Shown: positions 8,794-56,272, counted from the first letter of the stretch. The stretch: DNA of 63,219 nt from an uncultured Spirochaetaceae bacterium (GCA_964514135.1 CAZEPL010000001.1:6930-70148), one strand, 5' to 3'. Notes: generated by a model not told the origin, from the sequence alone. Numbers and translations are program-made.

Positions 8794-8831
8794 TCGAGCC
8801 AATTGAATAAAAGATTAGTTTGAGAAATACT

Positions 8832-8976: not shown

Positions 8977-8984
8977 TCACACTA

Positions 8985-9669: not shown

Positions 9670-9684
9670 TTTCCTGAACAAACC

Positions 9685-9717
9685 CACGGCCCCGGCCACA
9701 CACCGGGGCTTTTTTAT
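9685..9717 (+). terminator. Intrinsic terminator, copy 2 of the 33-bp repeat
   Basis: GCCCCGG-ccacaca-CCGGGGC then T6. Confidence 0.8.
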
Positions 9718-9905
9718 TGCTTTTTAAATCAAAATAGCATAATAATTGGAATAGGACGATCAATAGTTCCGGTAGCTTTATGAGAGTAATGATAAAAACT
9801 ACATAAAGCTCGCGAGGATCACAGAACCCTCCGTGTCCTCCGTGAGCTTTGTGTGAGCCGAATTCGTAAACTTTGGCCACTGCTTATTATATAAAAGGAG
9901 TACCT

Positions 9906-12607: not shown

Positions 12608-13234
12608 CTATACAAAGATATATCTGGCCAGCATATGTACCAGCTCATCTATCAAACTTTCTTGATTAATGTTTTCATATAATTTTTGGGAATGTTTCAC
12701 GATATGGACGATTTGATCAATGGTTGTCACAATCAGGACCGCGGCTGTTTCGTAATCGTTAATTTTCGTTAGTGCTCCGAACCGCTTCAAGATTTGTTCC
12801 GTACTCTTAAAACTCTTGGTTTCCCATATGCGGTGTGCGAGCGCTACATCGGGATCTGAATGCATTATTGAGCCGATCTCCTCATGCAGGTCGGGGAAGA
12901 TATCATGAGCTTTTAAAACCGGTTTGATAAAAGAGCGTACGAGCCGGTATTTGTCTTTCGGAATAAACTCAACAGTGTCCATAAGGGTGAAAAGATTTTT
13001 AAAAACCTGCTCAAAATGGATATTAACAACCTCTAAAAAAAGATCCTTTTTATCCTGAAAATAGGCATAAAACGTGCCAATAGAAACACCCGCCTGGTCG
13101 GCGAGTTCTTTGGAGTTTGTTTTATAGAATCCTTTTTCTGAAAACAGCTTAAATCCCGCGTCAATTATCTTCTGTTTCTTTTCGACGGAGCGTTCCTGTT
13201 GAGGCGTACGTTTTGTTTTATTCTCGGGGTTCAT
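12608..13234 (-). CDS. TetR/AcrR-family transcriptional regulator
   Basis: KIIDAGFKLFSEKGFYKTNSKELADQAGVSIGTFYAYFQDKKDL. Start placed at ATG 13234, because the longer ORF overlaps promoter DNA. Confidence 0.9.
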   Translation of the reverse strand: MNPENKTKRTPQQERSVEKKQKIIDAGFKLFSEKGFYKTNSKELADQAGVSIGTFYAYFQDKKDLFLEVVNIHFEQVFKNLFTLMDTVEFIPKDKYRLVRSFIKPVLKAHDIFPDLHEEIGSIMHSDPDVALAHRIWETKSFKSTEQILKRFGALTKINDYETAAVLIVTTIDQIVHIVKHSQKLYENINQESLIDELVHMLARYIFV

Positions 13235-13285
13235 AATTATTCTTAAGTAAAATTTATATAGTTGCCGCTTGTTTGTCAATGAAAA

Positions 13286-13368
13286 ATATGAATAAAAGTT
13301 CATTTTTTTGTTTGACAATGTGAATAAGAGTTTGTATACTATGTGACAATATGAATAAAAGTTCATAT
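13286..13368. promoter_or_regulatory. Sigma70 promoter of the MMPL operon flanked by two palindromic operators
   Basis: TTGACA (13312)-N17-TATACT (13335); ATATGAAtaaaagTTCATTT (13286-13305) and ATATGAAtaaaagTTCATAT (13349-13368). Confidence 0.8.
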
Positions 13369-13458
13369 TCATAATTGATAGGGGTTGGAATTTTTTAAAC
13401 GCAAATATGAACAAGACATTTTATTCGTATTTACGCATAATTCTTATGAGGAGTAACT

Positions 13459-29658: not shown

Positions 29659-29854
29659 AATTATTATTCGCTAAAAATATTTCCGTTCCAGCTGTACTCG
29701 GCAGTCCCAATGACGTTTTCTTCTACTAATAAGCACTCTTCCTCTTTGGAGTAGATATAATAGTAATAGTATATTGCATGGATAATCCATTTTCAATTTA
29801 TATATGTAAAACAATAATTGAAAAACTGGATTTAATAGAGAATACTTAACATTG

Positions 29855-32800
29855 ATGAGTAAAGACACCCATACGAACTCACAGCTTGAACAGCCTCCTC
29901 ATACGAGTAAAGATGATCTAAAGGCATTTGCAGAGCGGTTTTGTGAAACAACTGCGCTTGATTATAAAAAAGATCTTTTAGCCGATTTTTTAACACGTAA
30001 TCCCTCAATGAAATCAACTAAAATTATTGATGCGGTTCCGGTTTTGAGTGATCGCAAGCGCTGTATCGAATATATTGCAGAGTACAAAGGGAAACTTTCT
30101 TTAATTGAAAATCTCACTCTCTCACGCAGGCTTGCCAATACCAATAGAGAGATTGATAAACGGGCAAAAGACATTTTTAGCAGAATGACAGCCAAAGACC
30201 GTAAAGGCAGAAAATTTGATGAAATTGTAATGGGGAATATCTCACCATTAATCAAGCATAATGAGAGTCAGGTATTGCAGAATGTATTGCATAGAATTAA
30301 TAAAATAAAGGACAGCTCCCCTATTACCGATATCTATGCTTCATTTATTTCGGACCTGATTACAGCAATTAACATTGTACAGAAGATTAAAAACAATGGC
30401 ATTACAGAAAAATCTCTAGAAGAGGTTTTTAAGCAATCACGATCTAAACTGTTGAAAGCCGGCATGCGTACCATGATGCAGAATGTCTTCTTTATGGATC
30501 CGCGGTTTGCTCTGTTCAAACAAAAAATCCAAGAACTGCTTCATGCATTTCGCAGTGAAGAATTGGAAAAAGAAGCGGAGAGCGGACGTATATTAAATAA
30601 AGAGGAAGCCTTAGAAGATCTCGCTCATGTGAAAGATTTGGAAACTTTTTTGGAGAAAGCCTCTGCTATTATTGAGAGCGGATCTGCATATATAAAACAT
30701 GTAGCAAAGCTCTTTGATCTTCGCTTAAATAATCCGCTCCTGAATATATATAAAATCCTCAAATTTCCCATTGACAGAGAATGCTTTTGGAAGTGGATGC
30801 AAAACGCACCGGTTCCCACCAAGCTTCTGCCTGAAATTAAAGCGGAAATAAGCAGTTTAAAAGACGAGTTTGAAGCTGATTCCAAAGCCAGAAAAGCGCC
30901 GGATTCCTATGAAGATTTGTTAAAACTCATATACGACTATAAAATTTGTTTTACAGATAAATATAAACTTATTACGGAGGCTGTAAAAAAAATACCTGAA
31001 AAGCAAGCACTGGAATTCTGCCTGGATCAGATAAAAAATGTGCATTATAAGATAGAAAAAAAATTTCTCACTGTGGTTATAAATCAATTGCAGCACTGCT
31101 TTTCGCATTCGGAAGTAGAGAAGATTCTGCTTGAAGACAAAAAAAAGATAAGTCAGCGTATTGAGGGTTACAAGCTCAAGTTAAAAAAGAATATCGATAA
31201 TCTTATGCAGAACAGTCAACAGCAGAACTATGAAGTAATGCCTTCGGTGCTGAAATATGCCGTAGAAGAAAAGATGATGGGCGAAGAGGCATTTTTACAA
31301 ATAGACCGGCAGGTAAATCCGGAGCGCAAGTTGGGATTTATAGTGCGTTTGGCCAATTCGCTTATCGGTTTCTATTTTTTACTTAATTGTCAGTTCATCC
31401 TCGATTTATGGAGACAATACTTTGCCTCACTCAAAGTAAGTGATGGTGTGTTCTTAAGGCATAAACTCAGCTCCCTTACCAAAGAAGAGATTTATAAGTT
31501 ATGCACGCATTATGTTCAAGAAAAACCTGTAGTCATAGAAAATTTAGAGAAATATCTGGATTGGGGAAAAGCGGAAAAACAAGTACGCAAGCACATGCTG
31601 GAGCGATTAGGAGAATCTGAGAGTTTTGCCCCAGAGATTACAGCAGGTAAATATCGTCTTACCGGCAATAAATACGGCACAACAATGTTTTTAAAGATTT
31701 TGGATAGTGATAAAAAAGTACGCTTTTATAATAAATCTCCGGGAGTCAATACCTATTTGGATTTCTTCAATATAATTAGGCAAAACAAGATTAATAATCT
31801 TATTAATGTTTCCGACGAACAGCTTAAGGTATTGTATCAGAATATTCATCTGCACACAATTAGTCTGCTTTCTGAGTATATAGAGGAAAGACTCAAACTG
31901 CTTACGTTTAAAAATTCTTTGCTTCGACTTTCCGCAAAAGAAATAGAGGTAGCATATAAAAAAAATGAAAATCCTGCTCTACATGTTAAGGAGCTTTTGG
32001 AGAGCGGGGAATCAGAGCGAGCCCTGCGCAATACACTGCTGGGCAAGCTTGATCAGGAGCTGAAAACCACACCGGGGCAAGAGACAAAGATCATAGAGCG
32101 TATAGGGCTTGAAATACAAAATCAAAATACTGCTCTTGAACATATTGCTGCCATGATGCGTTTTGTGAACACGCTGGAAACAAAACAGGATTGCCTGGAC
32201 CAGATCACAAGCGTATCGATAGAGGAGATCGATAAGTATCTGAGAATGCATAGGATTGCAGAGAACGAGGCTTATTTGGAAACGGTCTCGAACAAACTAG
32301 ATGCACAGGAAGCTGAACAAGGAACAACACCCGATATCAGCAAAACAAAAGAATATGTGCAGGAGCTTTCCAAGCCTGAAATATTTGTAGCGGATGGTTC
32401 CGTGTATGAAGAGAAATATGAATCTTTGGACCAGGCAAAAACCGCTTTAAAAGATACTATATTATTAAATTCAATTGAAGATAATCTCAACTTTTTAAAT
32501 GAGTTATTAAAAATTGGAAATAATGAGCTGGCTGCCAGAAGCGGGTATATAAAAAAACACAGTGCATATAAAAAGGGTTCAGCTCGGTACTTTCTTTATG
32601 TAAGAGAGCTCGATGAACAGCGTGCACTCATTAAAAAAACACAAAGGTTCCTGGAATTTGTTTCTCAGGAATTGGCTAAATTGCAGGAGGTTAAAAAACT
32701 TAACGATGCCGCTTCACAGCGGTTTAAGGTAATTGCTGAAAAAATTCAGGATAAGCAGCCTGCTCTACAAGCAGAACTATTGGCGGCAGACCTGCAGCAG

Positions 32801-35230
32801 CTTGTCAATCCGGAGCAGAAGTTGGGAGTCGCGGCAAAATTTTTATTGAACTCTTCCGCTGAGGATATAATCGAAAAAACAAAAGAGATAATTAAAAAAG
32901 GTTCGGTGAACAAGTATATAATATTAATTGCCCTGTATAACATAATAGATCAACAGCAGGATCATGATGCTAAGGTAAAGATTTTGGATGAGTTCTGCCG
33001 CTATCTGGAAGAAAACCACTATGAACTCTATTTGCAGTTAAAAGATCTGCTTGATACTCAACGCAATAATCTGCTTAACCAGTACAGAATAAAGCGGGCA
33101 AAGATATCAGATTTGTGGAGGGTCCTGGAGACACAACAGAAGAGGGAGGATAAGATCAAGTATCTTAATGAGCTATTAGCAGATAGTGAATGGAGTATGT
33201 TTTATTCGTATGTTGAAAACATTAGGCAAGGGCTTTTAGCGGAAAATGTTGATGATATGCTGACATGCAATAAGCATTTGGCTTTGGAAGATCAGCAGGA
33301 TCTGCTGCAGAAAATCAAACTGTTTCGCTCGCAAGAGTACGATACACCGGAAATAAGTGAAAGGCTTTCACTCAAACTGCTGGAACTCAGCGCAAGGCAA
33401 AGTGTGCTTAAAGACACAAAAACCAAAGTGTTCTCTCCTCAAGGCTTTTCGTTCATTATGCGTATTCCGGCCGATGAAGAGAAGATTATGAAATCAATAA
33501 ACTCCACCCTGTTTAAAGCAGAACGGGAAGCTGTAGAGAAGGAGTTTAAAGCACAGGGTATCTCCCAACACGAGATTACGCAGTATATAACGACAAACTT
33601 ACGCTCCGAGAGTGATATTTCGACTTTTATTTTTCAAAAGCCAAAAGAAAAAATTCAAAGCAGACAAACAGCTCCGCTTGCGCAAGATAAGCATGAGATT
33701 GAGAAAACGCAAAAACCGACCCCGGCAGCGCAGGAAAAGGATACCCATGAAAAAGAAAAAGTACCTGCTTCTAGAGTACCGGCTCAAGGATTTGTAGAAA
33801 ATGAGAGACAGGAAGCCGGACCGGATGAGAAACAGGGAACAAATACGGATAAAATAGAGGATGTTGCGGCTGCTTTAAATATATTTGGGCCTGTACAGGA
33901 AGGCGCGGAGCAGGAACTGATTTCAGAAATACAAAAGCTTGTATACAACAAGAAGATAACAGAGGCAGTTTCCAAAATACAGAACGATGTGGTTTGGGAA
34001 AGCGGCAAAAGCGGAGAGATCGACAGAATGTCCAGATTGCTTTATTCCCTAAAAGAATTACCTGTAATACATGAGCATGAGCAGGTAAATGATTTTTTGG
34101 AAAAGCAATTGCAGACATTAAGCTCGGTTATTATAAACGAAGCTCATAAAAAAACAAAAGAACCTTCCAAACAACCGACTCTGCTCCGAGAACAGAACGG
34201 GGAGGCGCCTGTACCAGAGAAACAAGCACCCGATAGCAAGGAGGTAGAATCGGTAGCACAAGTGGAAGAAAAGGCAAAGCAAGGTTTAAGAACTCTGATT
34301 ATGTCTTTGGAAGGATTAAAGGAGTTTACCAATCTGCATACCTTTGCTGAACAAAGGGATTTTGAAGAGGAAGAAGAACAAAGACTGGCACGGATTATGA
34401 ATGAGCTTATTGCAAAAGGTAATTTTATTTATTTGGAAAAAGAGCAGCTCCTGCTAGGGGGGGGAATGCTGAAACTCCTCATTGAAAGAGCATTTGATCA
34501 GCAAAGCATAGGCAAACCGGTAACCATAGATCCTAACTTATTAAAGAAGGCGTGGGATCTTATAAGAACGAGAGGAAACATTAAAGAGCAGCTGCGATTG
34601 ATTGGAGTAAGCAGCCAGGAAGAGCGAAGCGATCTATTTAAAGAGCTTGAGAAAATGTTGAGGCCGCATGGTGTGCCTGTTCATCAATTAACTAAAAAGA
34701 AGATGTATGCAAAAGCGGAGAGTGAATTACAAGACAAGGAAGCTCCTGAGCAACAGCAGGCAGAAGAGAAAGATCTGAAGCATGAGCACGTGCCTCATAC
34801 TAAAAGAGCAGTGCAGGAAAAGCGGCGGGGGCTATTTGCTGCTCGAGCTAAGCCTAAAAAAAAGCCCAAAGCAGCACGTCCTGTTAAAAAAATTGATTAT
34901 TCTCAGACCTTAAGAAAATATATCAATCAATCCTATGCGCCTGTGTTAACAGACTACATGAAGCGTATGTATAGAAAGAAGAAAGACTTTTTTATTCCCA
35001 TTAGCGGTAGAAAGCAATATTACGATATTGAGATATTAAGGCGCTCGGTTGAGGGGATATTACGAAAAGATGCCCGCGGTAAGCATCATACAGATCTATT
35101 GCATTCACTGAAACATGATGAAAGGCTTTTTTCCAGAATCGTCTCCGAGCTTTTTATTGAACATAAAACTGAAAATGGAAAAAGGTATTACTTTCCGAAG
35201 TTCTTAAAGGGCGAGATCGAATTATCGTAA
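29855..35230 (+). CDS. Very large hypothetical protein (about 1,790 aa), alpha-helical, no recognised domain
   Basis: Uninterrupted 5.4-kb ORF; rich in K/E/L/Q; no signal peptide, TM segment or catalytic motif recognised. Confidence 0.9.
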   Translation: MSKDTHTNSQLEQPPHTSKDDLKAFAERFCETTALDYKKDLLADFLTRNPSMKSTKIIDAVPVLSDRKRCIEYIAEYKGKLSLIENLTLSRRLANTNREIDKRAKDIFSRMTAKDRKGRKFDEIVMGNISPLIKHNESQVLQNVLHRINKIKDSSPITDIYASFISDLITAINIVQKIKNNGITEKSLEEVFKQSRSKLLKAGMRTMMQNVFFMDPRFALFKQKIQELLHAFRSEELEKEAESGRILNKEEALEDLAHVKDLETFLEKASAIIESGSAYIKHVAKLFDLRLNNPLLNIYKILKFPIDRECFWKWMQNAPVPTKLLPEIKAEISSLKDEFEADSKARKAPDSYEDLLKLIYDYKICFTDKYKLITEAVKKIPEKQALEFCLDQIKNVHYKIEKKFLTVVINQLQHCFSHSEVEKILLEDKKKISQRIEGYKLKLKKNIDNLMQNSQQQNYEVMPSVLKYAVEEKMMGEEAFLQIDRQVNPERKLGFIVRLANSLIGFYFLLNCQFILDLWRQYFASLKVSDGVFLRHKLSSLTKEEIYKLCTHYVQEKPVVIENLEKYLDWGKAEKQVRKHMLERLGESESFAPEITAGKYRLTGNKYGTTMFLKILDSDKKVRFYNKSPGVNTYLDFFNIIRQNKINNLINVSDEQLKVLYQNIHLHTISLLSEYIEERLKLLTFKNSLLRLSAKEIEVAYKKNENPALHVKELLESGESERALRNTLLGKLDQELKTTPGQETKIIERIGLEIQNQNTALEHIAAMMRFVNTLETKQDCLDQITSVSIEEIDKYLRMHRIAENEAYLETVSNKLDAQEAEQGTTPDISKTKEYVQELSKPEIFVADGSVYEEKYESLDQAKTALKDTILLNSIEDNLNFLNELLKIGNNELAARSGYIKKHSAYKKGSARYFLYVRELDEQRALIKKTQRFLEFVSQELAKLQEVKKLNDAASQRFKVIAEKIQDKQPALQAELLAADLQQLVNPEQKLGVAAKFLLNSSAEDIIEKTKEIIKKGSVNKYIILIALYNIIDQQQDHDAKVKILDEFCRYLEENHYELYLQLKDLLDTQRNNLLNQYRIKRAKISDLWRVLETQQKREDKIKYLNELLADSEWSMFYSYVENIRQGLLAENVDDMLTCNKHLALEDQQDLLQKIKLFRSQEYDTPEISERLSLKLLELSARQSVLKDTKTKVFSPQGFSFIMRIPADEEKIMKSINSTLFKAEREAVEKEFKAQGISQHEITQYITTNLRSESDISTFIFQKPKEKIQSRQTAPLAQDKHEIEKTQKPTPAAQEKDTHEKEKVPASRVPAQGFVENERQEAGPDEKQGTNTDKIEDVAAALNIFGPVQEGAEQELISEIQKLVYNKKITEAVSKIQNDVVWESGKSGEIDRMSRLLYSLKELPVIHEHEQVNDFLEKQLQTLSSVIINEAHKKTKEPSKQPTLLREQNGEAPVPEKQAPDSKEVESVAQVEEKAKQGLRTLIMSLEGLKEFTNLHTFAEQRDFEEEEEQRLARIMNELIAKGNFIYLEKEQLLLGGGMLKLLIERAFDQQSIGKPVTIDPNLLKKAWDLIRTRGNIKEQLRLIGVSSQEERSDLFKELEKMLRPHGVPVHQLTKKKMYAKAESELQDKEAPEQQQAEEKDLKHEHVPHTKRAVQEKRRGLFAARAKPKKKPKAARPVKKIDYSQTLRKYINQSYAPVLTDYMKRMYRKKKDFFIPISGRKQYYDIEILRRSVEGILRKDARGKHHTDLLHSLKHDERLFSRIVSELFIEHKTENGKRYYFPKFLKGEIELS

Positions 35231-39838: not shown

Positions 39839-40129
39839 TTAATATTTTCGATAATTCTGATGGGGACCTCTGTCTCTGTTTCGATTTTCTCTTGCTTCAT
39901 CTACTTTTATCACCTTGCCGTTCAATTCACGTCCGTTTAAGGTTGAAATTGCACTTTTAGCTTCTTCTGATGTCTCCATCTCAATGAAGGCAAAACCTCT
40001 TGATTTGCCGGTATAAGCATCAGTAATAATTCTAATAGAAGCAACATTACCGCATTCTTTAAATAACTCTCTCAATTCATCATCTGTGGTTTCATAACTG
40101 AGGTTTCCTACATAGACTTTGTTAGCCAT
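39839..40129 (-). CDS. RRM-domain RNA-binding protein
   Basis: RNP2 VYVGNL and RNP1 RGFAFIEM; start after AAGGAG. Confidence 0.95.
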   Translation of the reverse strand: MANKVYVGNLSYETTDDELRELFKECGNVASIRIITDAYTGKSRGFAFIEMETSEEAKSAISTLNGRELNGKVIKVDEARENRNRDRGPHQNYRKY

Positions 40130-40425
40130 TTCTAAAACTCCTTTTTGTATAATTATTTGCATCCAAATAATAACTGCAAATTACATTATTTTACTGATTT
40201 GATCTAAAATATCGGGGGATAACATAGGCAAGCAATTATGAAACGGTATAATACTATTTTTAATCTACCTGCTACATTATGAGCACGCTTCATATTTTTA
40301 AACCAAAGCAATATTATATGATATTATATAATATTGCTTTATACAAGCTAAATCTTTTTTAAACTTTAAGGACTATTTTCATTAGTATAATAGCGAGTTA
40401 TACTATGAGCAAAATAAGGAGGTTA

Positions 40426-40657: not shown

Positions 40658-42600
40658 ATGCTTCATTCGAAGGAGTATGTTGTGTCAGAATTTAAAAAAG
40701 ATGATAAATCCATATCAAAACTTCAAAACCAGGAACTTCTGCTTCAGATCATCGAAACAAGTCCCGTATCCATCACTGTTTTAGACAAAAGCGGCCGCAT
40801 TATTTTTGCCAATTCTCGGGCAGAGAAGGTGCTCGGACTTAAAAAGAACGATATCACGCAGAGAACATATAATGATCCTTTATGGAAGATTACGGATTAT
40901 GGGGGTAAGCCTTTTCCCAATAAAGAGCTGCCCTTTTCCTTGGTAAAGCGAACGGGTAAACCGGTATTTAACGTCAGACACACCATTGAGTGGCCGGAAG
41001 GTAAAAAGATATTTCTTTCTATAAATGCTTCCCCGCTCTTTAATGAAAAAAAAGAGTTTACCGCTATGGTCACTTCGCTTGAGGATGTTACGGAAAAGGT
41101 AACTTCCAAGAGGGAGTTGGAAGAAAGTGAAGCTCGCTACCGCCATCTTTTTAACCGTATCTCAAGCGGTGTGGCTATTTATGAAGCTGTGGATAACGGA
41201 GAGGATTTCATTTTCAAGGATTTTAACCGGGCCGCTGAAAAGATCGAGTCAATAAAAAAACAAACGGTAATAGGAAAGCGGGTCAGCCATGTGTTTCCCG
41301 GCGTGAAGAAGTTCGGCTTGTTTAATGTTTTTAAACGAGTATATAAGACAGGCAAAGCGTAGGATCACCCTGTTTCACTCTATAAAGACAAACGCATTAC
41401 CGGCTGGCGGGAAAACTATGTGTACAAAATACCTTCCGGCGAAATTGTATCCGTGTACGACGACCGCACCAAGCAAAAGCAGGATGAGATGGCACTTCGA
41501 GAAAGTGAGGCCATGCTCAAGAGCATTTTTCGGGCGGCGCCAATAGGAATCGGTCTGGTAAAAAACCGCATTTTGTGTTGGACTAACGATATGATTCATA
41601 AAATAACCGGTTATTCGGAACAAGAGCTCAAAGGGAAAAATGCCCGGATTGTCTACCCCACGCAGGAGGAATATGAGTTTGTAGGTAAGATAAAATATGA
41701 TCAGATCCGTGAGAAGGGTAAAGGCACTGTGGAAACACTCTGACAGCGCAAGGACGGGAAAATTATTGATGTGCTCTTAAGCTCCACTCCCTTTGACCTC
41801 AACGATTTGAGCCAAGGAGTAATTTTTACTGCTCTGGATATAACCAAAAGAAAGCAGATGGAAAAGTAGCTGCGCCATGTGGAAAAAATGCTGGCCATCG
41901 GTCAGCTTGCAGGCGGTATTGCTCATGACTTTAATAATCAGCTGCTGGGTATGATTTGTTATGTTGATTTGCTGCGGGAAGAAGTGGATAATAATCCACT
42001 CATGCATGAGTATATAGATCATATTTATAATATTACGGAAAGGGCAAGCGATCTTGTGAAGCAGCTCCTCTCCTTTTCACGCAAAGAAAAAGACCTTTGC
42101 GTACCATGGACCTTCATAAAATACTCAAAGAAGTATTCTCGCTTTTGGAACACACTATTAGTAAGTGTATTGCTATTAAGCAGCAGCCGAATGCAAAGGA
42201 ATCCGTATTAATCGGCGATCCTTCACAACTTCAGAATGTGTTCCTCAATTTAGCGCTTAATGCCCGTGATGCCATGCCCGAAGGAGGAGAATTATCTTTT
42301 AGTACGGATTTTATTAAACTGAACAAGCAAGCCTGTCGGAAATATGGCATTGATTTCGCTCCCGGTACTTATATGAAGATTAGTATTTCCGATACCGGAA
42401 TCGGTATGGATGCGGAAGTGCAGCGCCAGATTTTTGAGCCCTTTTTTACTACAAAAGAAAAAGGCAAGGGCATGGGAATGGGGCTTGCCGCTGTACAGGG
42501 GACTGTAAAGAAGCATAAGGGAGAGATAACGGTAGCTTCCCAACCAGGCCGGGGAGCCAGATTCACCATTTTCCTTCCTTTATCAAAAAAAGCTTCCTGA
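40658..42600 (+). pseudogene. Multi-PAS histidine kinase pseudogene
   Basis: Three PAS domains, HisKA GGIAHDFNN, HATPase NARDAMPEGG, DTGIG, GMGLAAV. In-frame TAG 41360, TGA 41741, TAG 41867 and a frameshift near 42097. Confidence 0.9.
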
Positions 42601-43802: not shown

Positions 43803-44195
43803 ATGAAAAGATTGAAAACATGGACAAAAAAAGCGGTTGGTTATTTTGAGGGGCTGATTTCGATATTCGTTAATCTTCTCCTGTTCGGCGCCAAACTATG
43901 GGTGGGAGTACTTTTTAACTCCATAGCCATGATAGCCGATGCCTGGCATAGTCTTTCCGATAGTTTAACCTCTATTGATGAAATAAAGAATTTGGTACTG
44001 GAAGCATCGGACAAAATATCGGACAGTCATCATTTTCATTTCCACAAATACGGGGATCATTCGGAATTAACCTTTCATATCAGGGTGGTGTCGAATATGC
44101 ATGTAAAAAAAGCTCATGAAATTGCCAATACTATAGAGCAGAAGATAAAAGCCGTATACGGTTTTGAAACCACAATCCATATAGAACCGGATTAA
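43803..44195 (+). pseudogene. Cation diffusion facilitator with most of the TM domain deleted
   Basis: NLLLFGAKL..SIAMIADAWHSLSDSLTS joined directly to the C-terminal domain IDEIK...HFHKYG...AHEIAN...TIHIEP. Confidence 0.85.
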
Positions 44196-44241: not shown

Positions 44242-44847
44242 TTAAAAAGATACTCCCGCAAAAAGCACGCTCTCCAGTTTATAAAGAGGGTAGACTTCGT
44301 ACGCAGTTACAGGTACTGGTTCATTCATTATTCTATAAAGAACCTTTAAACCGGCATGGAAGCGATCAAGACGGACAGCAATTCCTCCGCCTGCCTGAAA
44401 GAAGATAGAGATCATAAGCAGTTCTCCATCATAGTAGTTGGAAGCATGTTCATTGCTGCAGCAGGGCAGCTTAACTCTGCCTGCGCAACCGATTCCGAAT
44501 TCCACGAAAGGATCGAGAAAAGAATCTTCCGTAAAATGATAGCGAAGATCCATACTGCCTATCCAGTCGAATTCCCATTCAATTTCAGAGTTATCTTCTA
44601 TTCTGTTGAATTTACCCAAATAGGTCATACCGAAACCCAAATGATTGAGTATCACTTCCCAGTATACACCAAGAAAAACTTCAGGGCTGTCCAACATATT
44701 TTCAAAGAAATTTTTACAGCGCACTTCGCCTGCCAGTTCAGCAGCAACTGCGATTCCGATACGGAATCTTTCAGTGTTAGGACTTTCAGCACCAAGACTG
44801 CCGGCAAAAAACAGCAGCAAGGTGAATAGTAATAGAACACGTGGCAT
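44242..44847 (-). CDS. Small outer-membrane beta-barrel protein
   Basis: Signal peptide ending LGA-ES; DLRYHF..FLDPFVEFGIG; terminal FAGVSF. Confidence 0.75.
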   Translation of the reverse strand: MPRVLLLFTLLLFFAGSLGAESPNTERFRIGIAVAAELAGEVRCKNFFENMLDSPEVFLGVYWEVILNHLGFGMTYLGKFNRIEDNSEIEWEFDWIGSMDLRYHFTEDSFLDPFVEFGIGCAGRVKLPCCSNEHASNYYDGELLMISIFFQAGGGIAVRLDRFHAGLKVLYRIMNEPVPVTAYEVYPLYKLESVLFAGVSF

Positions 44848-44893
44848 CTTTATACCTCCTTGTTATAAAGATAAAAATATATCTTTTCCAATG

Positions 44894-44922
44894 TAACACC
44901 GGAGGTGTTATAAACTGTCACC
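44894..44922 (-). promoter_or_regulatory. Putative ECF promoter, copy upstream of the OMP gene
   Basis: Minus strand GGTGAC-N16-GGTGTTA, about 47 nt before ATG 44847. Confidence 0.6.
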
Positions 44923-44941
44923 TCAAAGTTGCTGTACCGTA

Positions 44942-47080
44942 TTATTTTAGAAGTTGGACACCAAAGAAAAATTTGGGTACGATTGCGGCTTCATCATTTG
45001 AGTGGGGGACAGGAAATGAAAACAGAGAGTAATCGATATAGGATTCGTCATAATAGAGGTCCGGGTGGTAGAGCTGGAGATTAACACCTGCAAATATTCC
45101 GAAGGAATCGAAAAATGTATAACCGACTTTAAGCCTCATTTGGGGAAGCAGTGTTTCGTGAAAGACACGGTTTCCGCTATCTTCACTGGAGTGAATTGAG
45201 GTGGCTAGTACGTCGATATCTATAAAAGCAGCTTGGATGGGAATGTGTAAGCCCCAGCCGATTCCTAAAGACCATCTGTTGGAGTCGGCAATTAGATCGT
45301 AACCGGCTAAAAGTATGGTGTAAAAAAGCCTGGTACCGAATTTAAATCCCACATAGGAAAGAGAGTTGATTTCGGTCCATAGTTCAAAATTACATATGCC
45401 GTCTTTTGCATAATTAAACAGGCCGATGGCAACTCCGGAATTTTCTTCCGCAATATTAATCAGTCCGACCTGAACACCTTCGACTTTTTGGGCGATGTTA
45501 AGTAAGCCTATCTGGGCTCCGCTGATATTTCTGGCCAGGTTCAGACCTCCGCTGAGTTGTGCTCCGGAAATATCTTCACCAATATTACACAGTCCGGCAG
45601 CCTGTACTCCCGAAACTCCCATGCCCGCATAATTATAAATACCACTTACTTGTACTCCTTCCAGTTTGCCTAGGGTGTAGTTAAAAATACCGGCAGCTTG
45701 AACATAACTTGTGTTTCCATATGCCACATTGAATATGCCGCTGGCAGACGCACCGAGCGTGTCGCCCCAGACAATATTGTAAAGTCCCGATCCCTGAAAA
45801 CCGTACATGTCATAGAGCACTGTGCTCCCCAGTACGCTTAAGCTGCAACCCTGGATCATATCGTTGACACTTACACTCAGGTTTAAAGAAATTGATGTCT
45901 GAACTATGGTGTTTTCTTTTTTGCTTTGCGGAAAACCGGGAAACAGAGAAAAAGTGAAGGGTGTGTATTCATAATCATATTTGCCGTCCAAATCCAGCAT
46001 AGGATCTTTATCTCCGCGAGCATACGTAGATTCGGAATATATGAGCTTCAGGTTTTTTGCATAAAGGTTTGTTTTTTCCCCTTTAGTCAGGGTTACGTTC
46101 GTCTGATAATAAGTAGAGTTGTCATCTATTGTAATAAGGTAGCTGCCCGGCGAAAGGCCGATTTCCATCTTGTTTTGTGCAACCTTATTGAGCTCTACAA
46201 TTAAATCTCCTTTTGGATTCCTGATATAGATTCTGCCTAATATATTTTCTTCAATTATCAGACTCGCGGTTACTTCACGCAGGTCCGTGAGCACAAGGTC
46301 TCCCGTACCCGAAAGTTGTATATCATAAGAAGGGTGCTGCGGGCCGTGCTGGGTTTTTTCGGTCCGTGCCAATGTTTCTTTAAATGTGTAGTGGTAGGCT
46401 TCGTTGAGGGTTACCACCCCATCCTGCGTTACATCAGCGGCACCGCGCAAACCGGAAATTAAATAGTGGGTAAAAAAAGAGGCCTTTATCTTATCCGATT
46501 CCTGAGCAGCTTCTGTTTCTGAGCTTGAGGTTAAAAAGGCATACCCTTTCATTTCAGTTGAGGAGTCTACCATAAACGGTGCCTTTTTTACTCCGCCTTT
46601 TGCTCTTATAAATACTCCGGATGCGCAGGAATCGATAACCGCAATACGCACATCACTCGGCATTGTGGCAATAAGTGAACGCAGGCGTTTATAGGATAAT
46701 TTTTGCTCACCGAGTAACAGTCCTTCTTCATCCGAGTGACCGGAGTAATAAAAAATGAATTCTTGCCGCATGGTACTTTTTTGCTGATTTACAATTAAGC
46801 GTTTAATGGCGGTAAACGAGTGCTCAATACGGGTTACATCCGGATTAAGTAATAATATATTGTTTCCGGGCGACAGCCCGCCCATTTCCTGCATGACTCT
46901 GTTAAAAGACTCCGCATCTTTTGTGGCATACTGCAGCTTTGTTCTGTCCGGTCCGCCTTCGTTGGCACCAATAATCAGTCCATAGCGGATAATGGCGGTA
47001 TTTTTGCTGCCGGCAAAAGCACAGAAAGCTAAAATAAGGAAAATGAAGCTGAAAGCCGTCGTCTTCTTGCATAGTGCCAT
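44942..47080 (-). CDS. Exported caspase-family (peptidase C14) protease with Ig/PEGA-like domain, glycine-rich surface repeats and beta-rich C-terminus
   Basis: Signal peptide MALCKKTTAFSFIFLILAFCAFA. Catalytic FYYSGH (His 46736-46738) and IDSC (Cys 46625-46627); SFFTHYLISGLRGAAD. Repeats GxQxxGxxN (LA_2272-like). Start ATG 47080 after GGAGA. Confidence 0.9.
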   Translation of the reverse strand: MALCKKTTAFSFIFLILAFCAFAGSKNTAIIRYGLIIGANEGGPDRTKLQYATKDAESFNRVMQEMGGLSPGNNILLLNPDVTRIEHSFTAIKRLIVNQQKSTMRQEFIFYYSGHSDEEGLLLGEQKLSYKRLRSLIATMPSDVRIAVIDSCASGVFIRAKGGVKKAPFMVDSSTEMKGYAFLTSSSETEAAQESDKIKASFFTHYLISGLRGAADVTQDGVVTLNEAYHYTFKETLARTEKTQHGPQHPSYDIQLSGTGDLVLTDLREVTASLIIEENILGRIYIRNPKGDLIVELNKVAQNKMEIGLSPGSYLITIDDNSTYYQTNVTLTKGEKTNLYAKNLKLIYSESTYARGDKDPMLDLDGKYDYEYTPFTFSLFPGFPQSKKENTIVQTSISLNLSVSVNDMIQGCSLSVLGSTVLYDMYGFQGSGLYNIVWGDTLGASASGIFNVAYGNTSYVQAAGIFNYTLGKLEGVQVSGIYNYAGMGVSGVQAAGLCNIGEDISGAQLSGGLNLARNISGAQIGLLNIAQKVEGVQVGLINIAEENSGVAIGLFNYAKDGICNFELWTEINSLSYVGFKFGTRLFYTILLAGYDLIADSNRWSLGIGWGLHIPIQAAFIDIDVLATSIHSSEDSGNRVFHETLLPQMRLKVGYTFFDSFGIFAGVNLQLYHPDLYYDESYIDYSLFSFPVPHSNDEAAIVPKFFFGVQLLK

Positions 47081-47081
47081 A

Positions 47082-47909
47082 CTAGTATTCTCCTTTAATA
47101 AGAGTAAATGTGGTTTGATTAAACTTTTGAGGAAGATCAAGATATTCTTTCCTGGCCAAATCGCTGTCTTTTGCAATCTGCCCGGCTTTGGCCAGTATTT
47201 CCGTAGTATTTAGGGGAGAGTCGGATGAGATAAAAAAGAAACGCTCAAAATCGGGGGCATCGTCAAGTTCAAAAGAATCAGCCAAAAATATTTTTTTATG
47301 TTGGGTTAACATTGTATTTGCGCTTTTTTGATAAGGGAAATGGAGAGATATTTTTCCTCTTCCATCAATTGAGAATATTACTCCGTATTTGTTCTGGGCT
47401 GCGAAATACTGCACTTGGATTGTATCATGCGCAGATACGGTTGAGCCGTCTTTGAGCTTCTCTCCTTGAGCCCCGTTTTTAAGGAATATGGCAATGAGAG
47501 GTTTATCGTATTTCATATCAGTTCCCTTGATCCGGGTAGTGTCATCCGTATGATTGATAACTCCCGGCTGGGATGTTAAAAACAGCGGAATAATAAAAAC
47601 CGCAGCCAGCAGCACAACACAGGCACTGGCAAATCCGACTAAGGGAACAGGGCGTAGAAAAAAACTGCTTGTCTTCTTTTGTTTTTCAGGAATTTGCTGT
47701 GCGAGTTTGGTTTTTATTTGTTGAGCCATCTGTTTGGCAGGGTACTTAATGAGTATCTTCTTATTGGATGATTGAATCTCTTTAATGCGCTTTTGAATTA
47801 TCTTATTTTCTGCAGTAAGTGCTTGTATATATTGAGTTTCTTGTTCATCAACCTCACCCAGAAGATAACGCTCCAGTATAATGTCGGGTATAGTGTGTTG
47901 TTTACTCAT
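47082..47909 (-). CDS. Single-pass anti-sigma factor (ActD-like) with periplasmic DUF4384-like domain
   Basis: PDIILERYLLGE N-terminus; TM VGFASACVVLLAAVFIIPLF; TRIKG; YGVIFSIDGRGKISLHFP. Overlaps the sigma gene stop. Confidence 0.8.
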   Translation of the reverse strand: MSKQHTIPDIILERYLLGEVDEQETQYIQALTAENKIIQKRIKEIQSSNKKILIKYPAKQMAQQIKTKLAQQIPEKQKKTSSFFLRPVPLVGFASACVVLLAAVFIIPLFLTSQPGVINHTDDTTRIKGTDMKYDKPLIAIFLKNGAQGEKLKDGSTVSAHDTIQVQYFAAQNKYGVIFSIDGRGKISLHFPYQKSANTMLTQHKKIFLADSFELDDAPDFERFFFISSDSPLNTTEILAKAGQIAKDSDLARKEYLDLPQKFNQTTFTLIKGEY

Positions 47910-48391
47910 AGGTAGACCTCCCTTTTTTCCTTCAACTTACTTTTTAACAGCTTCAAGCGTTTTCGAACTCCGGATACGGAAAGTTTTACTTCTCTACTCA
48001 CTTGCTCCAAGGTTAAACCGTCGACGTAGTGCAATACAGCCATTACTTTGGTGGACGCTTTTTCCGATTGAAAAATGGCATTAATAAGATCTCTGTGAAA
48101 AAATCTCTGTTCCTGATCGTCGCTGGAAGCTATATGATAAAGGATATCGTCCTGCAGTATATTTGGTCTTCTGGTTTCCGATCTTATTATATTAAGGCAT
48201 GTGTTAGTCGCAATCCGGTAGAGCAGGCTGGACAATGCTTTGGAGTTCAGTTTATTCTGGTATCTTAGGACTTTTACAAAAGTATCCTGCATGGCATCTA
48301 ATGCTTTCTGTTCATTCTTAAGTAAATAGTTGCAGCGACGTAATACCATGGGCCCGTACTTTCTGTATATTGCTTCGACATCAATATCCAA
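47906..48391 (-). CDS. ECF RNA polymerase sigma factor
   Basis: Sigma2 YRKYGPMV..ALDAMQDTF..LLYRIATNTCLN; sigma4 DGLTLEQVS..SVSGVRKRL. Confidence 0.92.
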   Translation of the reverse strand: MDIDVEAIYRKYGPMVLRRCNYLLKNEQKALDAMQDTFVKVLRYQNKLNSKALSSLLYRIATNTCLNIIRSETRRPNILQDDILYHIASSDDQEQRFFHRDLINAIFQSEKASTKVMAVLHYVDGLTLEQVSREVKLSVSGVRKRLKLLKSKLKEKREVYL

Positions 48392-48419
48392 GTCATAATC
48401 CTTTCTCTCTTTAATTATA

Positions 48420-48448
48420 TAACACCTGTGCTATATAAAGATGTTACC
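48420..48448 (-). promoter_or_regulatory. Putative autoregulatory ECF promoter
   Basis: Minus strand GGTAAC-N16-GGTGTTA, about 29 nt before the sigma start, preceded by an A10 tract (48454-48463). Confidence 0.65.
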
Positions 48449-48516: not shown

Positions 48517-49455
48517 TTATGAAGAAGAGTGGTTATAAATCACCACTCTGTTTTTGCCTCTTTTTTTAGCCTCATAGAGAGCCTTGTCCGACTTGGTGAT
48601 GAGTTGTTCCGGTTTTTCCCCCGGGGAGTAAAACCCGACTCCGATACTTACGGTAACCGGGAGCCCCACACACTTCGGCATACCCGACTCGATCATGCCC
48701 CTGATTTTCTCGGCGATCCTGATGCTCATGTCCGATTTCATTTCGGGTACTACCACCGCGATCTCCTCGCCACCATAGCGGGCGACCAGATCATTTACAC
48801 GGGTATTTTCCCGGATGACAGATGCGACGGCCGCGAGCACCTGGTCCCCTTTCTGATGGCCATGTATGTCATTGACCTGCTTGAAATTGTCAATATCAAT
48901 CAGAAAAAATGAGAGTATGTAATTGTAGCGTTTAGCACGTTCGAGCTCCTTGGCAAGTTCCTCGTCCAGGTACCTCCTGTTATAAAGCCGGGTAAGCCGG
49001 TCACGGTTGGCGAGTGCGTGGAGTTTTGTTTTGGCCCTGTTGATGCTTCGTTTCAGGTTCAAGAGCTGTTTATGAGTTTTCTTGTCGCTTATGCTCTGCA
49101 GAAGCTCGGCCATCTGGTGTTCGATGAGCAGGGTGTCGGTAAGCTCACGGTCGAACTCCTCTTCGAAGACGGCCTTTCCGAATTCCTTATACACGAGATA
49201 ACATGTCCCGATGTTGATGTGATCACCATCAAAAAGAACATGCATAAGGGTTTTCTTTCCGTTAACGAAAATCCCGTTCGTGCTGTTGGTATCTTCTATT
49301 AAAAAACGGCCGTTACGAAAGATAATCCTGGCATGCTTTCGTGAAGTGGTCTGGCCGGGAATGCGGATCACAACCTGTGGATCTCTGCCGATGATATACT
49401 CGATGTCCTGCTTGAGATTGATTTTCGTATCCAGATAGTACAGGCAGTACCTCAA
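48517..49455 (-). CDS. FHA-domain diguanylate cyclase (GGDEF)
   Basis: FHA IGR..SRKHA..STNG; DRLTRLYNRR, DIDNFKQVND..GH..GD, RVND (RxxD I-site), RYGGEEI. Confidence 0.92.
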   Translation of the reverse strand: MRYCLYYLDTKINLKQDIEYIIGRDPQVVIRIPGQTTSRKHARIIFRNGRFLIEDTNSTNGIFVNGKKTLMHVLFDGDHINIGTCYLVYKEFGKAVFEEEFDRELTDTLLIEHQMAELLQSISDKKTHKQLLNLKRSINRAKTKLHALANRDRLTRLYNRRYLDEELAKELERAKRYNYILSFFLIDIDNFKQVNDIHGHQKGDQVLAAVASVIRENTRVNDLVARYGGEEIAVVVPEMKSDMSIRIAEKIRGMIESGMPKCVGLPVTVSIGVGFYSPGEKPEQLITKSDKALYEAKKRGKNRVVIYNHSSS

Positions 49456-53939: not shown

Positions 53940-55094
53940 ATGAAGACAGCCTTAAAATCACTCATCCGCCTGCTGGCTATCGCGGAAAAAGAATGGATTC
54001 AGATCAGGCGCGATTGGCGCAGTCTTGTACTTTCACTCATCCTGCCGGTGATTCTCCTCCTGTTATTCGGCTATGCCCTGAATATGGATGTAAAGAACGT
54101 CGGTGTAGCTGTATTTGATCAGGATAAATCTGTTCTTTCCCGCCGTTTGATTGACAGCCTGTTCCATAATGAGTATTTGGTCTTGTACTCTTATCTTAAT
54201 GATTATGAGGAAATAGATATTTTAATCGATCAGGATGTTATTAAAATGGCTTTGGTTTTTCCTCCCCGTTTTTCGGAATACTATTATGCCGGTAAACAGA
54301 GCGAGCTGCAATTAATTGTGGACGGCAGCGATTCAACAATCGCTACCATTGCGGCGAGTTATGTGCGCTCAATCCTATTCGATTTTAATAAACAGGAGAA
54401 GGAACGGGAGTTTAAGCGATATGGTTACGGGCAGACCGATTTTCCCATAACCATAGCAAACCGTGTGTGGTATAATCCCGAGCTCGAGAGTAAAAATTTT
54501 ATTATCCCCGGCCTTATTGTGCTCATTATGGCCATCATCTCAGCGCTTATAACTTCTTTGACCATTTCACGCGAGTGGGAGCGCGGTACCATGGAAACAT
54601 TGATTTCCACCCCTTTAAGAAAATACGAGCTCTATTTCGGCAAGCTCATACCCTATATCTTTATTGCCCTGTTTGATGTGATATGCACATTCACCCTGGC
54701 TTATTTTGTGTTCAATGTTCCCTTTAAAGGCAGCTTTGTGGAATTTTATTTAATAGCCCTTTTATTTTTAATCGGCACATCCAGTCTGGGCATGATGCTT
54801 TCGTCGGCAACACGCTCCCAGGTACTTTCGGTGCAGTTCGCCATCCTTATAACATACCTTCCCAGCTTTATTCTCTCCGGGTATGTGTTCCCCATCCTTA
54901 ATATGCCCAATCTCGTACAAACCGTCACGTACCTGATTCCCGCGAGATATCTTATGGTCTATGTAAAGAGTTTAGCTTTAAGGGGTATAGGATATACCCT
55001 GCTCTGGGGACAAATTCTCTTTTTATTGGTGTTTGCCCTTGCCGTAGGTACGGTCTGTCTTATCACACTCAGGCTGACATTGCCTGAAAAATAG
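53940..55094 (+). CDS. ABC-2 transporter permease (YbhS-like)
   Basis: KEWIQIRRD, WYNPEL, REWERGTME motifs. Confidence 0.9.
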   Translation: MKTALKSLIRLLAIAEKEWIQIRRDWRSLVLSLILPVILLLLFGYALNMDVKNVGVAVFDQDKSVLSRRLIDSLFHNEYLVLYSYLNDYEEIDILIDQDVIKMALVFPPRFSEYYYAGKQSELQLIVDGSDSTIATIAASYVRSILFDFNKQEKEREFKRYGYGQTDFPITIANRVWYNPELESKNFIIPGLIVLIMAIISALITSLTISREWERGTMETLISTPLRKYELYFGKLIPYIFIALFDVICTFTLAYFVFNVPFKGSFVEFYLIALLFLIGTSSLGMMLSSATRSQVLSVQFAILITYLPSFILSGYVFPILNMPNLVQTVTYLIPARYLMVYVKSLALRGIGYTLLWGQILFLLVFALAVGTVCLITLRLTLPEK

Positions 55095-55114: not shown

Positions 55115-56272
55115 ATGAAGGTGATACGGAAGAATATTTTATTGGGTTTTATGCGTAAAGAGTTTAAACAGATGCTGCGTGATGTGCGTATGCGTATGAT
55201 CTTGTTTGCAGCTCCTGTTTTTATGCTTTTACTATTCGGGTACGCGGTGAACACGGATGTTAAAAATATCCGCTTTGCCGTTTACGATGAAGATAAAACC
55301 TTGATGAGCAGGGAATTTACCGGGGAGTTTTCAGCTTCAGGCTATTTCCAGTATTATGCGTCTGTCTCTTCAGCGCGGGAGATTGATACGCTTTTGGATA
55401 CAATGCAGGTTGAGATGATCTTTCATATCCCCACTGGTTTTGAAGAAGAATTAAGGAGCGGGGGAGATGTAAGTATACAGCTGCTTATTGACGGAGCGGA
55501 TGCCAGCAGGGCAAATGTGATTATCGCCTACGTGAATGCAGTTACAAACAGTTATGCCCTGGAGTTGTTTGAAAAAAAGCTTGCGCTGAAAATTATTTCC
55601 CGCAGGGGCCTTCCGGTTACTCTTAAAAAGACAATTGAGCTTAAGGAGCGCTTTTGGTTTAATCCGGAGCTCTCCAGCCGTAATTTCTTTTTACCGGCGA
55701 TTTTGGGCCTGATAATTACCATGATCACCATAACTCTGACAAGCATGTCGATTGTAAAAGAGAGGGAGATGGGGACTATGGAGCAGCTCATCGTTACTCC
55801 CATCCATGCCCTGGAACTGATTGCCGGCAAGACCATTCCGTTTATGGCGGTCAGCCTCATCGATACCGTTGTTGTTACCACCATTATGCTTCTCTGGTTT
55901 AATGTCCCTTTTTTAGGAAGCTTTATATTTATGCTTATATGCTCGCTGGGGTTCATTTTATTTACTTCCGCGGTAGGCGTATATATCTCCACTATTTCCA
56001 GAACACAGCAGCAGGCGCTGCTCTCCGTGTTTTTATTTTTTATGCCCGCCATGCTTCTTTCAGGATTCGTTTTTCCCATTTCCTCCATGCCGCAGGTTAT
56101 CAGATGGCTTACCCTATTAAATCCCCTTCGCTATTATATCAGAATTGTCAGAGGCATATTTTTAAAGGGAGTTGGAATCAATATTCTTTGGCCCGATTTA
56201 TTAGCCCTCTTTTGTATGGGGTTTGTGCTTATAATTTTTAGCACCAGACGTTTTAGAAAACACTTGGAGTAA
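55115..56272 (+). CDS. ABC-2 transporter permease (YbhR-like)
   Basis: KEFKQMLRD, WFNPEL, KEREMGTMEQL motifs. Confidence 0.9.
   Translation: MKVIRKNILLGFMRKEFKQMLRDVRMRMILFAAPVFMLLLFGYAVNTDVKNIRFAVYDEDKTLMSREFTGEFSASGYFQYYASVSSAREIDTLLDTMQVEMIFHIPTGFEEELRSGGDVSIQLLIDGADASRANVIIAYVNAVTNSYALELFEKKLALKIISRRGLPVTLKKTIELKERFWFNPELSSRNFFLPAILGLIITMITITLTSMSIVKEREMGTMEQLIVTPIHALELIAGKTIPFMAVSLIDTVVVTTIMLLWFNVPFLGSFIFMLICSLGFILFTSAVGVYISTISRTQQQALLSVFLFFMPAMLLSGFVFPISSMPQVIRWLTLLNPLRYYIRIVRGIFLKGVGINILWPDLLALFCMGFVLIIFSTRRFRKHLE

Follow-up and report, generated by a model that had tools for sequence, protein, structure and literature searches.

Organization and Conservation of the Locus

The locus considered here lies on the minus strand of a 63,219-nucleotide stretch of DNA from an uncultured Spirochaetaceae bacterium (GCA_964514135.1 CAZEPL010000001.1:6930-70148), which is referred to below as the window. 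Four genes, read from position 48448 down to 44242, encode a sigma factor of the extracytoplasmic function (ECF) type, an anti-sigma factor, an exported fusion protein carrying a C14 (caspase-type) protease, and a small exported protein resembling outer-membrane proteins (OMP-like) (Table 1). The sigma stop codon and the anti-sigma start codon share a 4 bp overlap, the ATG of the protease gene at 47080 lies 1 bp past the anti-sigma stop (TAG t ATG), and the OMP-like gene follows the protease gene after a 94-bp spacer and has its own AAGGAGG ribosome-binding site. An earlier note, written from the sequence alone, had described this gene set with its spacing and features, and the description was confirmed, minus-strand coordinates included.

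The first three genes make up a conserved cassette that is widespread and independent of clustered regularly interspaced short palindromic repeats (CRISPR). Homologues of the protease fusion number more than 6000, and full-length ones at about 40% identity occur in Spirochaetota, Myxococcota (e.g., Stigmatella), and other groups. A locus scan with one genome per species returned at least 559 loci, of which the best 80 were kept and their stop-to-stop open reading frames (ORFs) searched with the window proteins; these 80 represent Spirochaetota, Myxococcota, Fermentibacteria, Aminicenantia, Eiseniibacteriota, and Bdellovibrionales, and the myxococcal ones include Corallococcus, Myxococcus, Archangium, and Haliangium. 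An anti-sigma homologue is encoded directly upstream of the protease and on the same strand in 76 of the 80 loci, and a sigma homologue upstream of the anti-sigma in 66; half of the sigma misses (7/14) are contig ends. A reverse search from three anti-sigma homologues led back to this triad, again with stop codons that overlap start codons, a limited test as these three loci are mutually related. The conserved neighborhood that the earlier note had named as a check is thus present across several phyla.

The view that the genes are independent of CRISPR also stands: no CRISPR array was found in the window, PADLOC gave no meaningful match to a defence system there, and a profile search of the neighboring ORFs detected no cas domains, with no defence genes nearby. 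A search for Rfam families in the window was likewise negative.

Table 1. Features of the cassette and of the adjoining OMP-like gene, with positions counted from the first base of the window (AF2, AlphaFold2; pLDDT, predicted local distance difference test; OM, outer membrane).
Feature	Position	Strand	Details
Putative autoregulated ECF promoter, GGTAACA-N15-GGTGTT	48421..48448	-	29 nt upstream of sigma start codon
ECF (group IV) sigma factor	47906..48391	-	161 aa, TTG start; Sigma70_r2, TIGR02937
Single-pass anti-sigma factor	47082..47909	-	275 aa; AF2 pLDDT 85; DUF4384-type sandwich
T125-R126-I127-K128-G129 codons, candidate site-1 motif in anti-sigma juxtamembrane linker	47523..47537	-	pLDDT below 50
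Exported C14 protease fusion	44942..47080	-	712 aa; Peptidase_C14, LA_2272_repeat, VC2662_fam; AF2 pLDDT 86
Caspase-fold domain (residues 30-260)	46301..46993	-	H115, C152, D55, D150
I158-R159-A160-K161-G162 codons, candidate autoprocessing site in post-Cys loop	46595..46609	-	pLDDT below 50
Immunoglobulin (Ig)-like beta-sandwich (263-347)	46040..46294	-	AF2 strands; MALT1 caspase+Ig match
Disordered linker (351-365) with T352-x-x-R355-G356	45986..46030	-	pLDDT below 50
Beta-solenoid, LA_2272-type repeats	45398..45976	-	NF047436; regular short strands 391-558 (AF2)
C-terminal beta region (562-712)	44945..45397	-	about 150 residues, eight long strands; putative 8-stranded OM barrel
Second motif copy, GGTGACA-N15-GGTGTT	44895..44922	-	47 nt upstream of OMP-like gene
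Small exported OMP-like protein	44242..44847	-	201 aa; signal peptide, C-terminal FxGxSF

The Sigma Factor and Its Anti-Sigma

On its family scores, the first protein is an ECF (group IV) sigma-70 factor. Sigma70_r2 is matched at E=3e-12 (46.5 bits against a cut-off of 24) and the ECF profile TIGR02937 at 66.8 bits (cut-off 42.9), with Sigma70_r4_2 at E=2.7e-4 and 21 bits, under its gathering cut-off of 25.7. The TTG start codon lies 8 nt after a GGA-rich ribosome-binding site.

The anti-sigma factor is modeled by AF2 as four helices (residues 9–72) and a transmembrane helix (92–110), both of high confidence, a linker (111–131) that is low in confidence and predicted to be disordered, and a beta-sandwich (138–272). 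The sandwich is probably of the DUF4384 type, as the earlier note had said of a one-pass anti-sigma with a periplasmic domain: the window protein itself reaches 18 bits with PF14326, against a gathering cut-off of 27, and 24 of 56 members of the anti-sigma family match DUF4384 at E<=0.01 (best E=1.3e-6), with precomputed PF14326 matches on several homologues, which makes the call credible at the family level. No ASD or zf-HC2 profile was matched except in 1 of the 56 homologues, and NF052375 reached 14 bits against a cut-off of 100. A specific structural relative was sought with Foldseek, which returned generic Ig-like sandwiches only (e.g., RhoGDI) at E>=4e-3. The family comprises 2158 clusters at 50% identity (E<=1e-30), nearly all with proteins of 250–300 aa.

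Architecture of the Protease Fusion

The third gene encodes, in order, a signal peptide, a caspase domain, an Ig-like domain, a linker, beta-solenoid repeats, and a C-terminal barrel. A longer ORF starting from a TTG at 47176 was considered and rejected, the homologues being of 712 aa and not using that start. The protein is a clan CD caspase-fold peptidase of family C14 by family score (PF00656, 32.9 bits; gathering cut-off 21.4), by its catalytic dyad, and by its fold. H115 and C152 are invariant among 113 protease homologues, and 79 of the 80 loci encode both YYSGHS and DSCxSG. Foldseek matches of the N-terminal half are MALT1, caspases 1, 3, 4, 6, and 7, and the yeast metacaspase Yca1, at E values of 1e-4 to 1e-3, and the match to the MALT1 paracaspase covers the caspase and Ig-like domains together over 402 alignment columns. 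D55 and D150 are also invariant in the 113 sequences and are aligned by profile to the aspartates of the ‘CVND’ and ‘DSC’ motifs of Arabidopsis metacaspase-4 (AtMC4, PDB 6w8s), although the sequence similarity of the family profile to AtMC4 is weak (E=8e-4). In metacaspases, the equivalent aspartates build an acidic S1 pocket for Arg or Lys, as in the TbMCA2 and AtMC4 structures. The S1 residues of the window protease are of this metacaspase type, which suggests a basic P1 specificity.

Within the caspase-fold domain, the stretch ADxTxDGxVTLNE is modeled as a helix-loop-helix, with D216 and E227 invariant and D220 kept in at least 90% of the sequences. It had been called EF-hand-like, and this reading holds as a candidate calcium site; position 3 of the stretch is Thr, a residue that the strict PROSITE EF-hand pattern does not allow there. 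The signal peptide, H/C dyad, Ig-like domain, about ten repeats, and beta-rich C-terminus listed in the earlier note were likewise all recovered from profiles and the AF2 model. Homology between the Ig-like domain of the protease and the DUF4384 sandwich of the anti-sigma, which could have offered a pairing interface, was not detected by hhalign (probability 0.5%, E=0.12).

The repeats belong to the LA_2272_repeat family (NF047436), matched in two stretches at 34 bits (cut-off 25). In the AF2 model, they form a solenoid at about residues 369–560 with two strands per repeat; ten repeat units of 14–16 residues can be counted at 411–561, and five of the ten fit a relaxed GxQxxGxxN pattern. The C-terminal region is, from its model, probably an eight-stranded outer-membrane barrel that serves as an anchor, its Foldseek matches being NspA (1p4t), the N-terminal barrel of OprF (4rlc, TMt 0.62), and PcoB, at E values of about 1e-2. 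Outer-membrane barrels with an even number of strands have both termini in the periplasm. Because the termini of an eight-stranded barrel face the periplasm, the N-terminal parts of the protein are read as periplasmic, and it is more likely on this model that the repeats and caspase domain are tethered under the outer membrane than that they are exposed on the surface. The earlier proposal that the repeats sense a surface cue is left without support by this topology, which would place repeats and protease in the periplasm, the C-terminal 150 or so residues best matching eight-stranded barrels.

A Motif Common to the Protease and the Anti-Sigma

The protease and the anti-sigma carry the same short motif, R-x-K-G, each in a flexible segment. 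In the anti-sigma, it lies in the juxtamembrane linker, with K128 standing 18 residues outside the membrane; the linker ahead of it varies in length, and the folded domain follows. Among 77 anti-sigmas (the window and 76 loci), K128 and G129 are kept in all 77 and R126 in 69, position 125 being T, V, or I; K128 and G129 are the only invariant residues outside the folded domains. In the protease, the copy lies 9 residues after the catalytic Cys, within a loop (154–177) of pLDDT below 50, and among the 113 homologues T158 is found in 101, R159 in 111, and both K161 and G162 in all 113 (the window has I158). Caspases and metacaspases autoprocess in the loop that follows the catalytic Cys. A related motif in the disordered linker behind the Ig-like domain is also strongly conserved in the same 113 proteases (T352 in 96, R355 in 112, and G356 in 113).

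Taken with the S1 residues, these motifs suggest a T-x-x-[K/R]/G cleavage specificity with three uses, namely self-processing at K161, possibly release at R355, and cleavage of the anti-sigma at K128. The claim that the protease cuts the anti-sigma is thereby strengthened in part: the common R-x-K-G in flexible segments and the Arg/Lys-type S1 residues speak for it, and the cleavage itself is what we infer from them.

Promoter Motif and Candidate Regulon

Two sites in the window share the pattern GGTRACA-N15-GGTGTT, one ahead of the sigma gene and one ahead of the OMP-like gene. The pattern was derived from these same two sites, which makes any statistic for the window post hoc, and the related loci serve as the independent test. 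In most of the 66 related loci, across phyla, it is found some 30 nt upstream of the sigma start. When both strands of 0.97 Mb are counted, the strict form GT[AG]AC-N17-[GT]TGTT has 82 matches, whereas Markov shuffles give 2.45 on average, and nearly all of the 82 are just upstream of cassette genes. At least 47 stand directly ahead of a sigma gene, six are ahead of anti-sigma genes (in loci with extra copies or without an adjacent sigma), and seven are ahead of the OMP-like gene (the window, L001, L002, L003, L006, L013, and L076). The occurrence of a promoter motif GTRAC-N17-KTGTT ahead of the sigma gene across phyla is new here, and it is inferred from sequence that the motif is the promoter used by the sigma and that the operon is autoregulated.

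Other genes behind the motif vary between lineages. They include TonB-dependent-receptor-like genes with a Plug domain (L019 1890–4289, L029 2134–4488, L059 1879–4257, and L053 366–2618), an ExbB gene (L016 3350–4018), and an adenylate-cyclase-like gene in L044; receptor-like genes of this kind occur in 7 of the 80 loci and ExbB in 4. The motif also precedes stand-alone repeat-plus-barrel proteins (L017 3341–4534, L037 213–1406, and L067 8452–9552), in which LA_2272 repeats follow a signal peptide and lead to a C-terminal barrel, with no caspase domain; a reading of these three as short caspase paralogues was dropped on that ground. As they stand behind the same motif, the anchor module appears to exist alone under the same sigma. 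A third promoter-like site in the window, GGGGAC...GGTGTT at 55006–55033 (plus strand), has one mismatch, at the T that is kept in all the other sites, and was treated as a chance match; it lies within an ORF (53940–55094) and upstream of another (55115–56272).

The OMP-like gene is probably a lineage-specific accessory and a member of the sigma regulon that is not part of the core; it is read as a sigma target because the same promoter motif precedes it. It had been put forward as an OMP component of the signaling system, and the gene and its signal peptide hold up. The label itself is weak, coming from a conserved C-terminal FxGxSF and a match to OMP_b-brl at E about 0.1 at best, with no significant family, and the role as a system component does not agree with its presence in 7 of 80 loci only. 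Its family holds 32 proteins, of which few are annotated, Spirochaetia being the only taxon named. No PDB sequence was matched at E<=10, and homology to the C-terminal barrel of the protease was sought by BLASTP and not found (E=0.56).

Proposed Mechanism and Alternatives

Gene order, conservation, domains, motifs, and promoter were computed, and topology, specificity, cleavage, and the direction of cleavage are read from them. The reading favored here, which we give about an even chance of being right, is that the operon encodes, in its third gene, the site-1 protease for its own anti-sigma factor, and that the autoregulated promoter provides positive feedback. The anti-sigma would hold the ECF sigma at the inner membrane by its cytoplasmic helical domain, and the metacaspase-like C14 protease, specific for Arg or Lys, would be exported by its Sec signal peptide, held on the periplasmic side of the outer membrane by its C-terminal eight-stranded barrel, and pushed into the periplasm at its catalytic end by the beta-solenoid stalk and the Ig-like domain. 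Once activated, the protease would process itself at T-R-x-K/G in the post-Cys loop, and a second cut at the T-x-x-R/G linker may free it from its anchor. It would then cut the same T-R-x-K/G in the juxtamembrane linker of the anti-sigma, removing the DUF4384 sandwich; the stub that remains, of about 18 residues, would have a fitting length for a site-2 protease acting within the membrane. The freed sigma would transcribe from GTRAC-N17-KTGTT its own operon and a small, lineage-variable set of envelope genes, which would comprise the OMP-like gene in the window and, elsewhere, TonB-dependent-receptor-like, ExbB, and stand-alone repeat-barrel proteins.

The trigger is a matter of speculation and could be a cue from the envelope or the outer membrane, in view of the outer-membrane tether, a stalk that varies in length, and a regulon of envelope proteins. 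A more specific version, in which the variable solenoid acts as a ‘molecular ruler’ and access to the T-R-x-K/G site reports outer-membrane integrity or envelope geometry, is a long shot. The extension of the cleavage reading to a whole class, with the C14 caspase homologue as the dedicated site-1 protease of a large and previously unrecognized group of ECF/anti-sigma pairs, is tentative and somewhat less probable than not; such a class would span at least 2000 anti-sigma clusters at 50% identity in Spirochaetota, Myxococcota, and other phyla.

Several observations weigh against cleavage of the anti-sigma by the neighboring protease. A gene behind a sigma/anti-sigma pair is often merely a target of the sigma, and where a genome has several paralogous cassettes, the common cleavage motif would have to be supplemented by another determinant of specificity. 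Five loci carry the anti-sigma and the protease without an adjacent sigma gene and two the protease alone (six of these seven are Myxococcota and one is labelled Pseudomonadota). R126 does not covary with R159, which is retained in the partner proteases of all eight anti-sigmas that lack R126. In most homologues, the anti-sigma motif stands 3–4 residues before the first beta strand, and for so short a motif so close to the strand a structural role is possible; in the clade of the window, an insertion of 6–7 residues separates the two, which argues against a purely structural role. The placement in the periplasm is read from modest Foldseek matches of the C-terminus (E about 1e-2) and from the general barrel rule, and the order of protease, beta-helix, and barrel is reminiscent of autotransporters. 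Transcript evidence was also sought, and only DNA runs contain the sequence.

The same sigma-less loci and the same lack of covariation between the R residues of the two motifs speak for a rival account in which the protease is regulon output only and, anchored in the outer membrane, processes or degrades envelope proteins in the periplasm, the anti-sigma being inactivated by DegS, Prc, or another site-1 protease or by a ligand of DUF4384. The protease is co-transcribed behind an autoregulated promoter, the motif in the seven sigma-less loci precedes the anti-sigma/protease pair or the protease alone, and the other motif-driven genes encode envelope proteins (OMP-like, TonB-receptor-like, ExbB, and repeat-barrel). 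This account is nevertheless unlikely, as it leaves unexplained why anti-sigma and protease are so tightly coupled, with overlapping or abutting genes in 76 of 80 loci, why both proteins have a common R-x-K-G in flexible segments, and why the sensor domain of the anti-sigma is of a type otherwise fused to proteases.

A binding role is quite improbable. The protease could act like RseB as a protector bound to DUF4384, or DUF4384 with the R-x-K-G linker could serve as a pseudosubstrate by which the protease stays latent, the signal being release of the complex; the gene order mirrors rpoE-rseA-rseB, a substrate-like motif could inhibit, and DUF4384 is known fused to proteases. Pure binding would not need the strict conservation of the dyad and the S1 residues, however, and the motif sits in a flexible linker, as a cleavage site would.

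The least probable account is the version of the earlier note, in which a surface-displayed, autotransporter-like protease with its repeats relays an external cue inward: an N-terminal protease, a beta-solenoid, and a C-terminal barrel recall the serine-protease autotransporters, and NCBIfam names the repeat ‘surface repeat-containing’, but the C-terminus of about 150 residues best fits 8-stranded rather than 12-stranded autotransporter barrels, and for a protease on the surface, a motif 18 residues from the inner membrane would be out of reach.

Comparison With Known Systems

The cassette with its proposed site-1 protease resembles the RpoE-RseA-DegS/RseP system in that an ECF sigma and a single-pass anti-sigma are co-transcribed from an autoregulated promoter, in that a site-1 cut near the membrane in the periplasm would be followed by a site-2 cut, and in that the third gene encodes a periplasmic partner. 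It differs in that the candidate site-1 protease is a clan CD (C14) cysteine protease where the known system has a PDZ serine protease, in that its gene belongs to the operon and its product is putatively anchored in the outer membrane, and in that the sensor domain of the anti-sigma is DUF4384. Metacaspases and orthocaspases such as AtMC4 and Yca1 share with the window protease the caspase fold, the SGHS/DSCxSG dyad, the S1-position aspartates, and a basic residue after the catalytic Cys, whereas the signal peptide and the Ig-like, solenoid, and barrel modules set the window protease apart. Type Va autotransporters have a C-terminal 12-stranded barrel of about 250–300 residues with a helix that traverses the pore. 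The C-terminus of the window protease, by contrast, is modeled with about 150 residues, eight strands, and no linker helix.

Closer precedents are found among clan CD proteases that act on sigma factors. In Myxococcus xanthus, the periplasmic TPR-CHAT (tetratricopeptide repeat and CHAT) part of DdvA is proposed to autoproteolyse before RseP acts and to gate an ECF anti-sigma (PMC11506125). DdvS-DdvA and, as predicted, the present cassette both couple a periplasmic clan CD His-Cys module to a transmembrane anti-sigma and an ECF sigma, and in both a cut in a flexible linker beside the transmembrane helix is proposed to come ahead of RseP. In DdvA, however, the protease is fused to the anti-sigma in a protein of about 900 residues, is proposed to act in cis or in trans in a dimer, and controls an island with CRISPR and a cyclic oligonucleotide-based antiphage signaling system (CBASS) (PMC11506125). 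The window anti-sigma has 275 aa with a DUF4384-type sandwich only, and its protease is a separate polypeptide, so that the system is not of the DdvA type.

In the craspase system (Cas7-11/Csx29), the clan CD protease Csx29 cuts the anti-sigma-like Csx30, which is bound to an ECF-type sigma, and RpoE is released; the C-terminal domain of one Csx30 group is DUF4384 (PMC10028731; bioRxiv 10.1101/2022.08.17.504292). Craspase is cytoplasmic, RNA-guided, of the CHAT type, and encoded in a CRISPR locus, whereas the window system is predicted to be periplasmic, is of the C14 type, and is independent of CRISPR. The window also does not belong with the type III-E and III-B protease-sigma circuits (Csx29/Csx30/RpoE; SAVED-CHAT/PCaspase), its protease having a signal peptide and being C14 and not CHAT.

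An association of bacterial caspase homologues with sigma factors has been known since 2012, when four of the five metacaspases of M. xanthus were reported in operons with sigma-70-family factors, together with similar operons in Anaeromyxobacter, Haliangium, Sorangium, Ralstonia, and Fibrobacter (Asplund-Samuelsson et al., 2012; PMC3501461). The association described there is, with high likelihood, that of the present cassette. The 2012 report concerns co-occurrence only and gives no anti-sigma, mechanism, motif, promoter, or topology (PMC3501461). CHAT and other protease genes occur in the context of group ECF54 (PMC8999054), and the main text of the ECF group classification mentions neither caspase nor C14 nor DUF4384 (Casas-Pastor, 2021; PMC7826278). 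No experimental study of the sigma/anti-sigma/caspase cassette was found in the literature searched, of which the coverage is incomplete. The gene association is accordingly not new, and DdvA and Csx29/Csx30 are mechanistic precedents; besides the promoter, new here are the R-x-K-G common to the protease loop and the anti-sigma linker, as read from the sequences, and, from the model, a barrel-like C-terminus of the protease that would place the repeats in the periplasm.

Surroundings of the Cassette

The flanking genes are ordinary chromosomal ones, including an FHA-GGDEF cyclase, an MscS-like channel, a TetR/ABC system, and radical-SAM enzymes. The sequence of the window was recovered from salt-marsh and sediment DNA runs, and its nearest relatives are metagenome-assembled genomes of Spirochaetales. 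The FHA-GGDEF diguanylate cyclase gene (48517–49455, minus strand) lies just upstream of the sigma promoter, and a hairpin (48526–48549) stands between the two; this neighbor is kept only in the closest relative, L001, which places it outside the cassette.

Two interrupted or shortened genes are found on the plus strand beyond the OMP-like gene. A PAS/PAS/HisKA/HATPase sensor kinase (40658–42600) has three in-frame stops and a frameshift near 42097 that divide it into four ORFs, and it is either a pseudogene or an assembly error. A cation-diffusion-facilitator remnant of 130 aa (43803–44195) has Cation_efflux positions 2–42 of 198 fused directly to ZT_dimer; as only these positions are kept, most of the membrane domain is gone. 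A small ORF on the minus strand (39839–40162, 107 codons), identified by eye, encodes an RRM-type RNA-binding protein whose RRM-like sequence starts MANKVYVGNLSYETTDDELRELF at the in-frame Met 12.

Farther away, Pfam was not matched at E<=1e-5 by an ORF of 1792 codons (29852–35230, plus strand). At 13285–13366, a 31-bp unit is repeated in tandem (2.6 copies, 70% matches); this repeat lies within an ORF on the minus strand (12608..13414) and just upstream of an MMPL/RND-type transporter gene at 13459. The G+C content of positions 6001–10000 is 0.31–0.34, against about 0.40–0.43 across most of the window, and this stretch may be foreign DNA.

Implications for Bacterial Caspase Homologues

To our knowledge, little is understood of what caspase homologues do in bacteria, and cell death is the usual frame in which they are placed. 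The cassette described here offers a concrete regulatory role for such a protein, with a candidate substrate, a candidate cleavage site, and a promoter that can serve as a reporter, and it is present in genetically tractable relatives of Myxococcus. If the proposed mechanism is true, a cysteine-protease branch would be added to the routes by which ECF sigma factors are released, the periplasmic DdvA and the cytoplasmic craspase/Csx30 would join one theme of clan CD proteases as sigma switches, and DUF4384 would gain a function.

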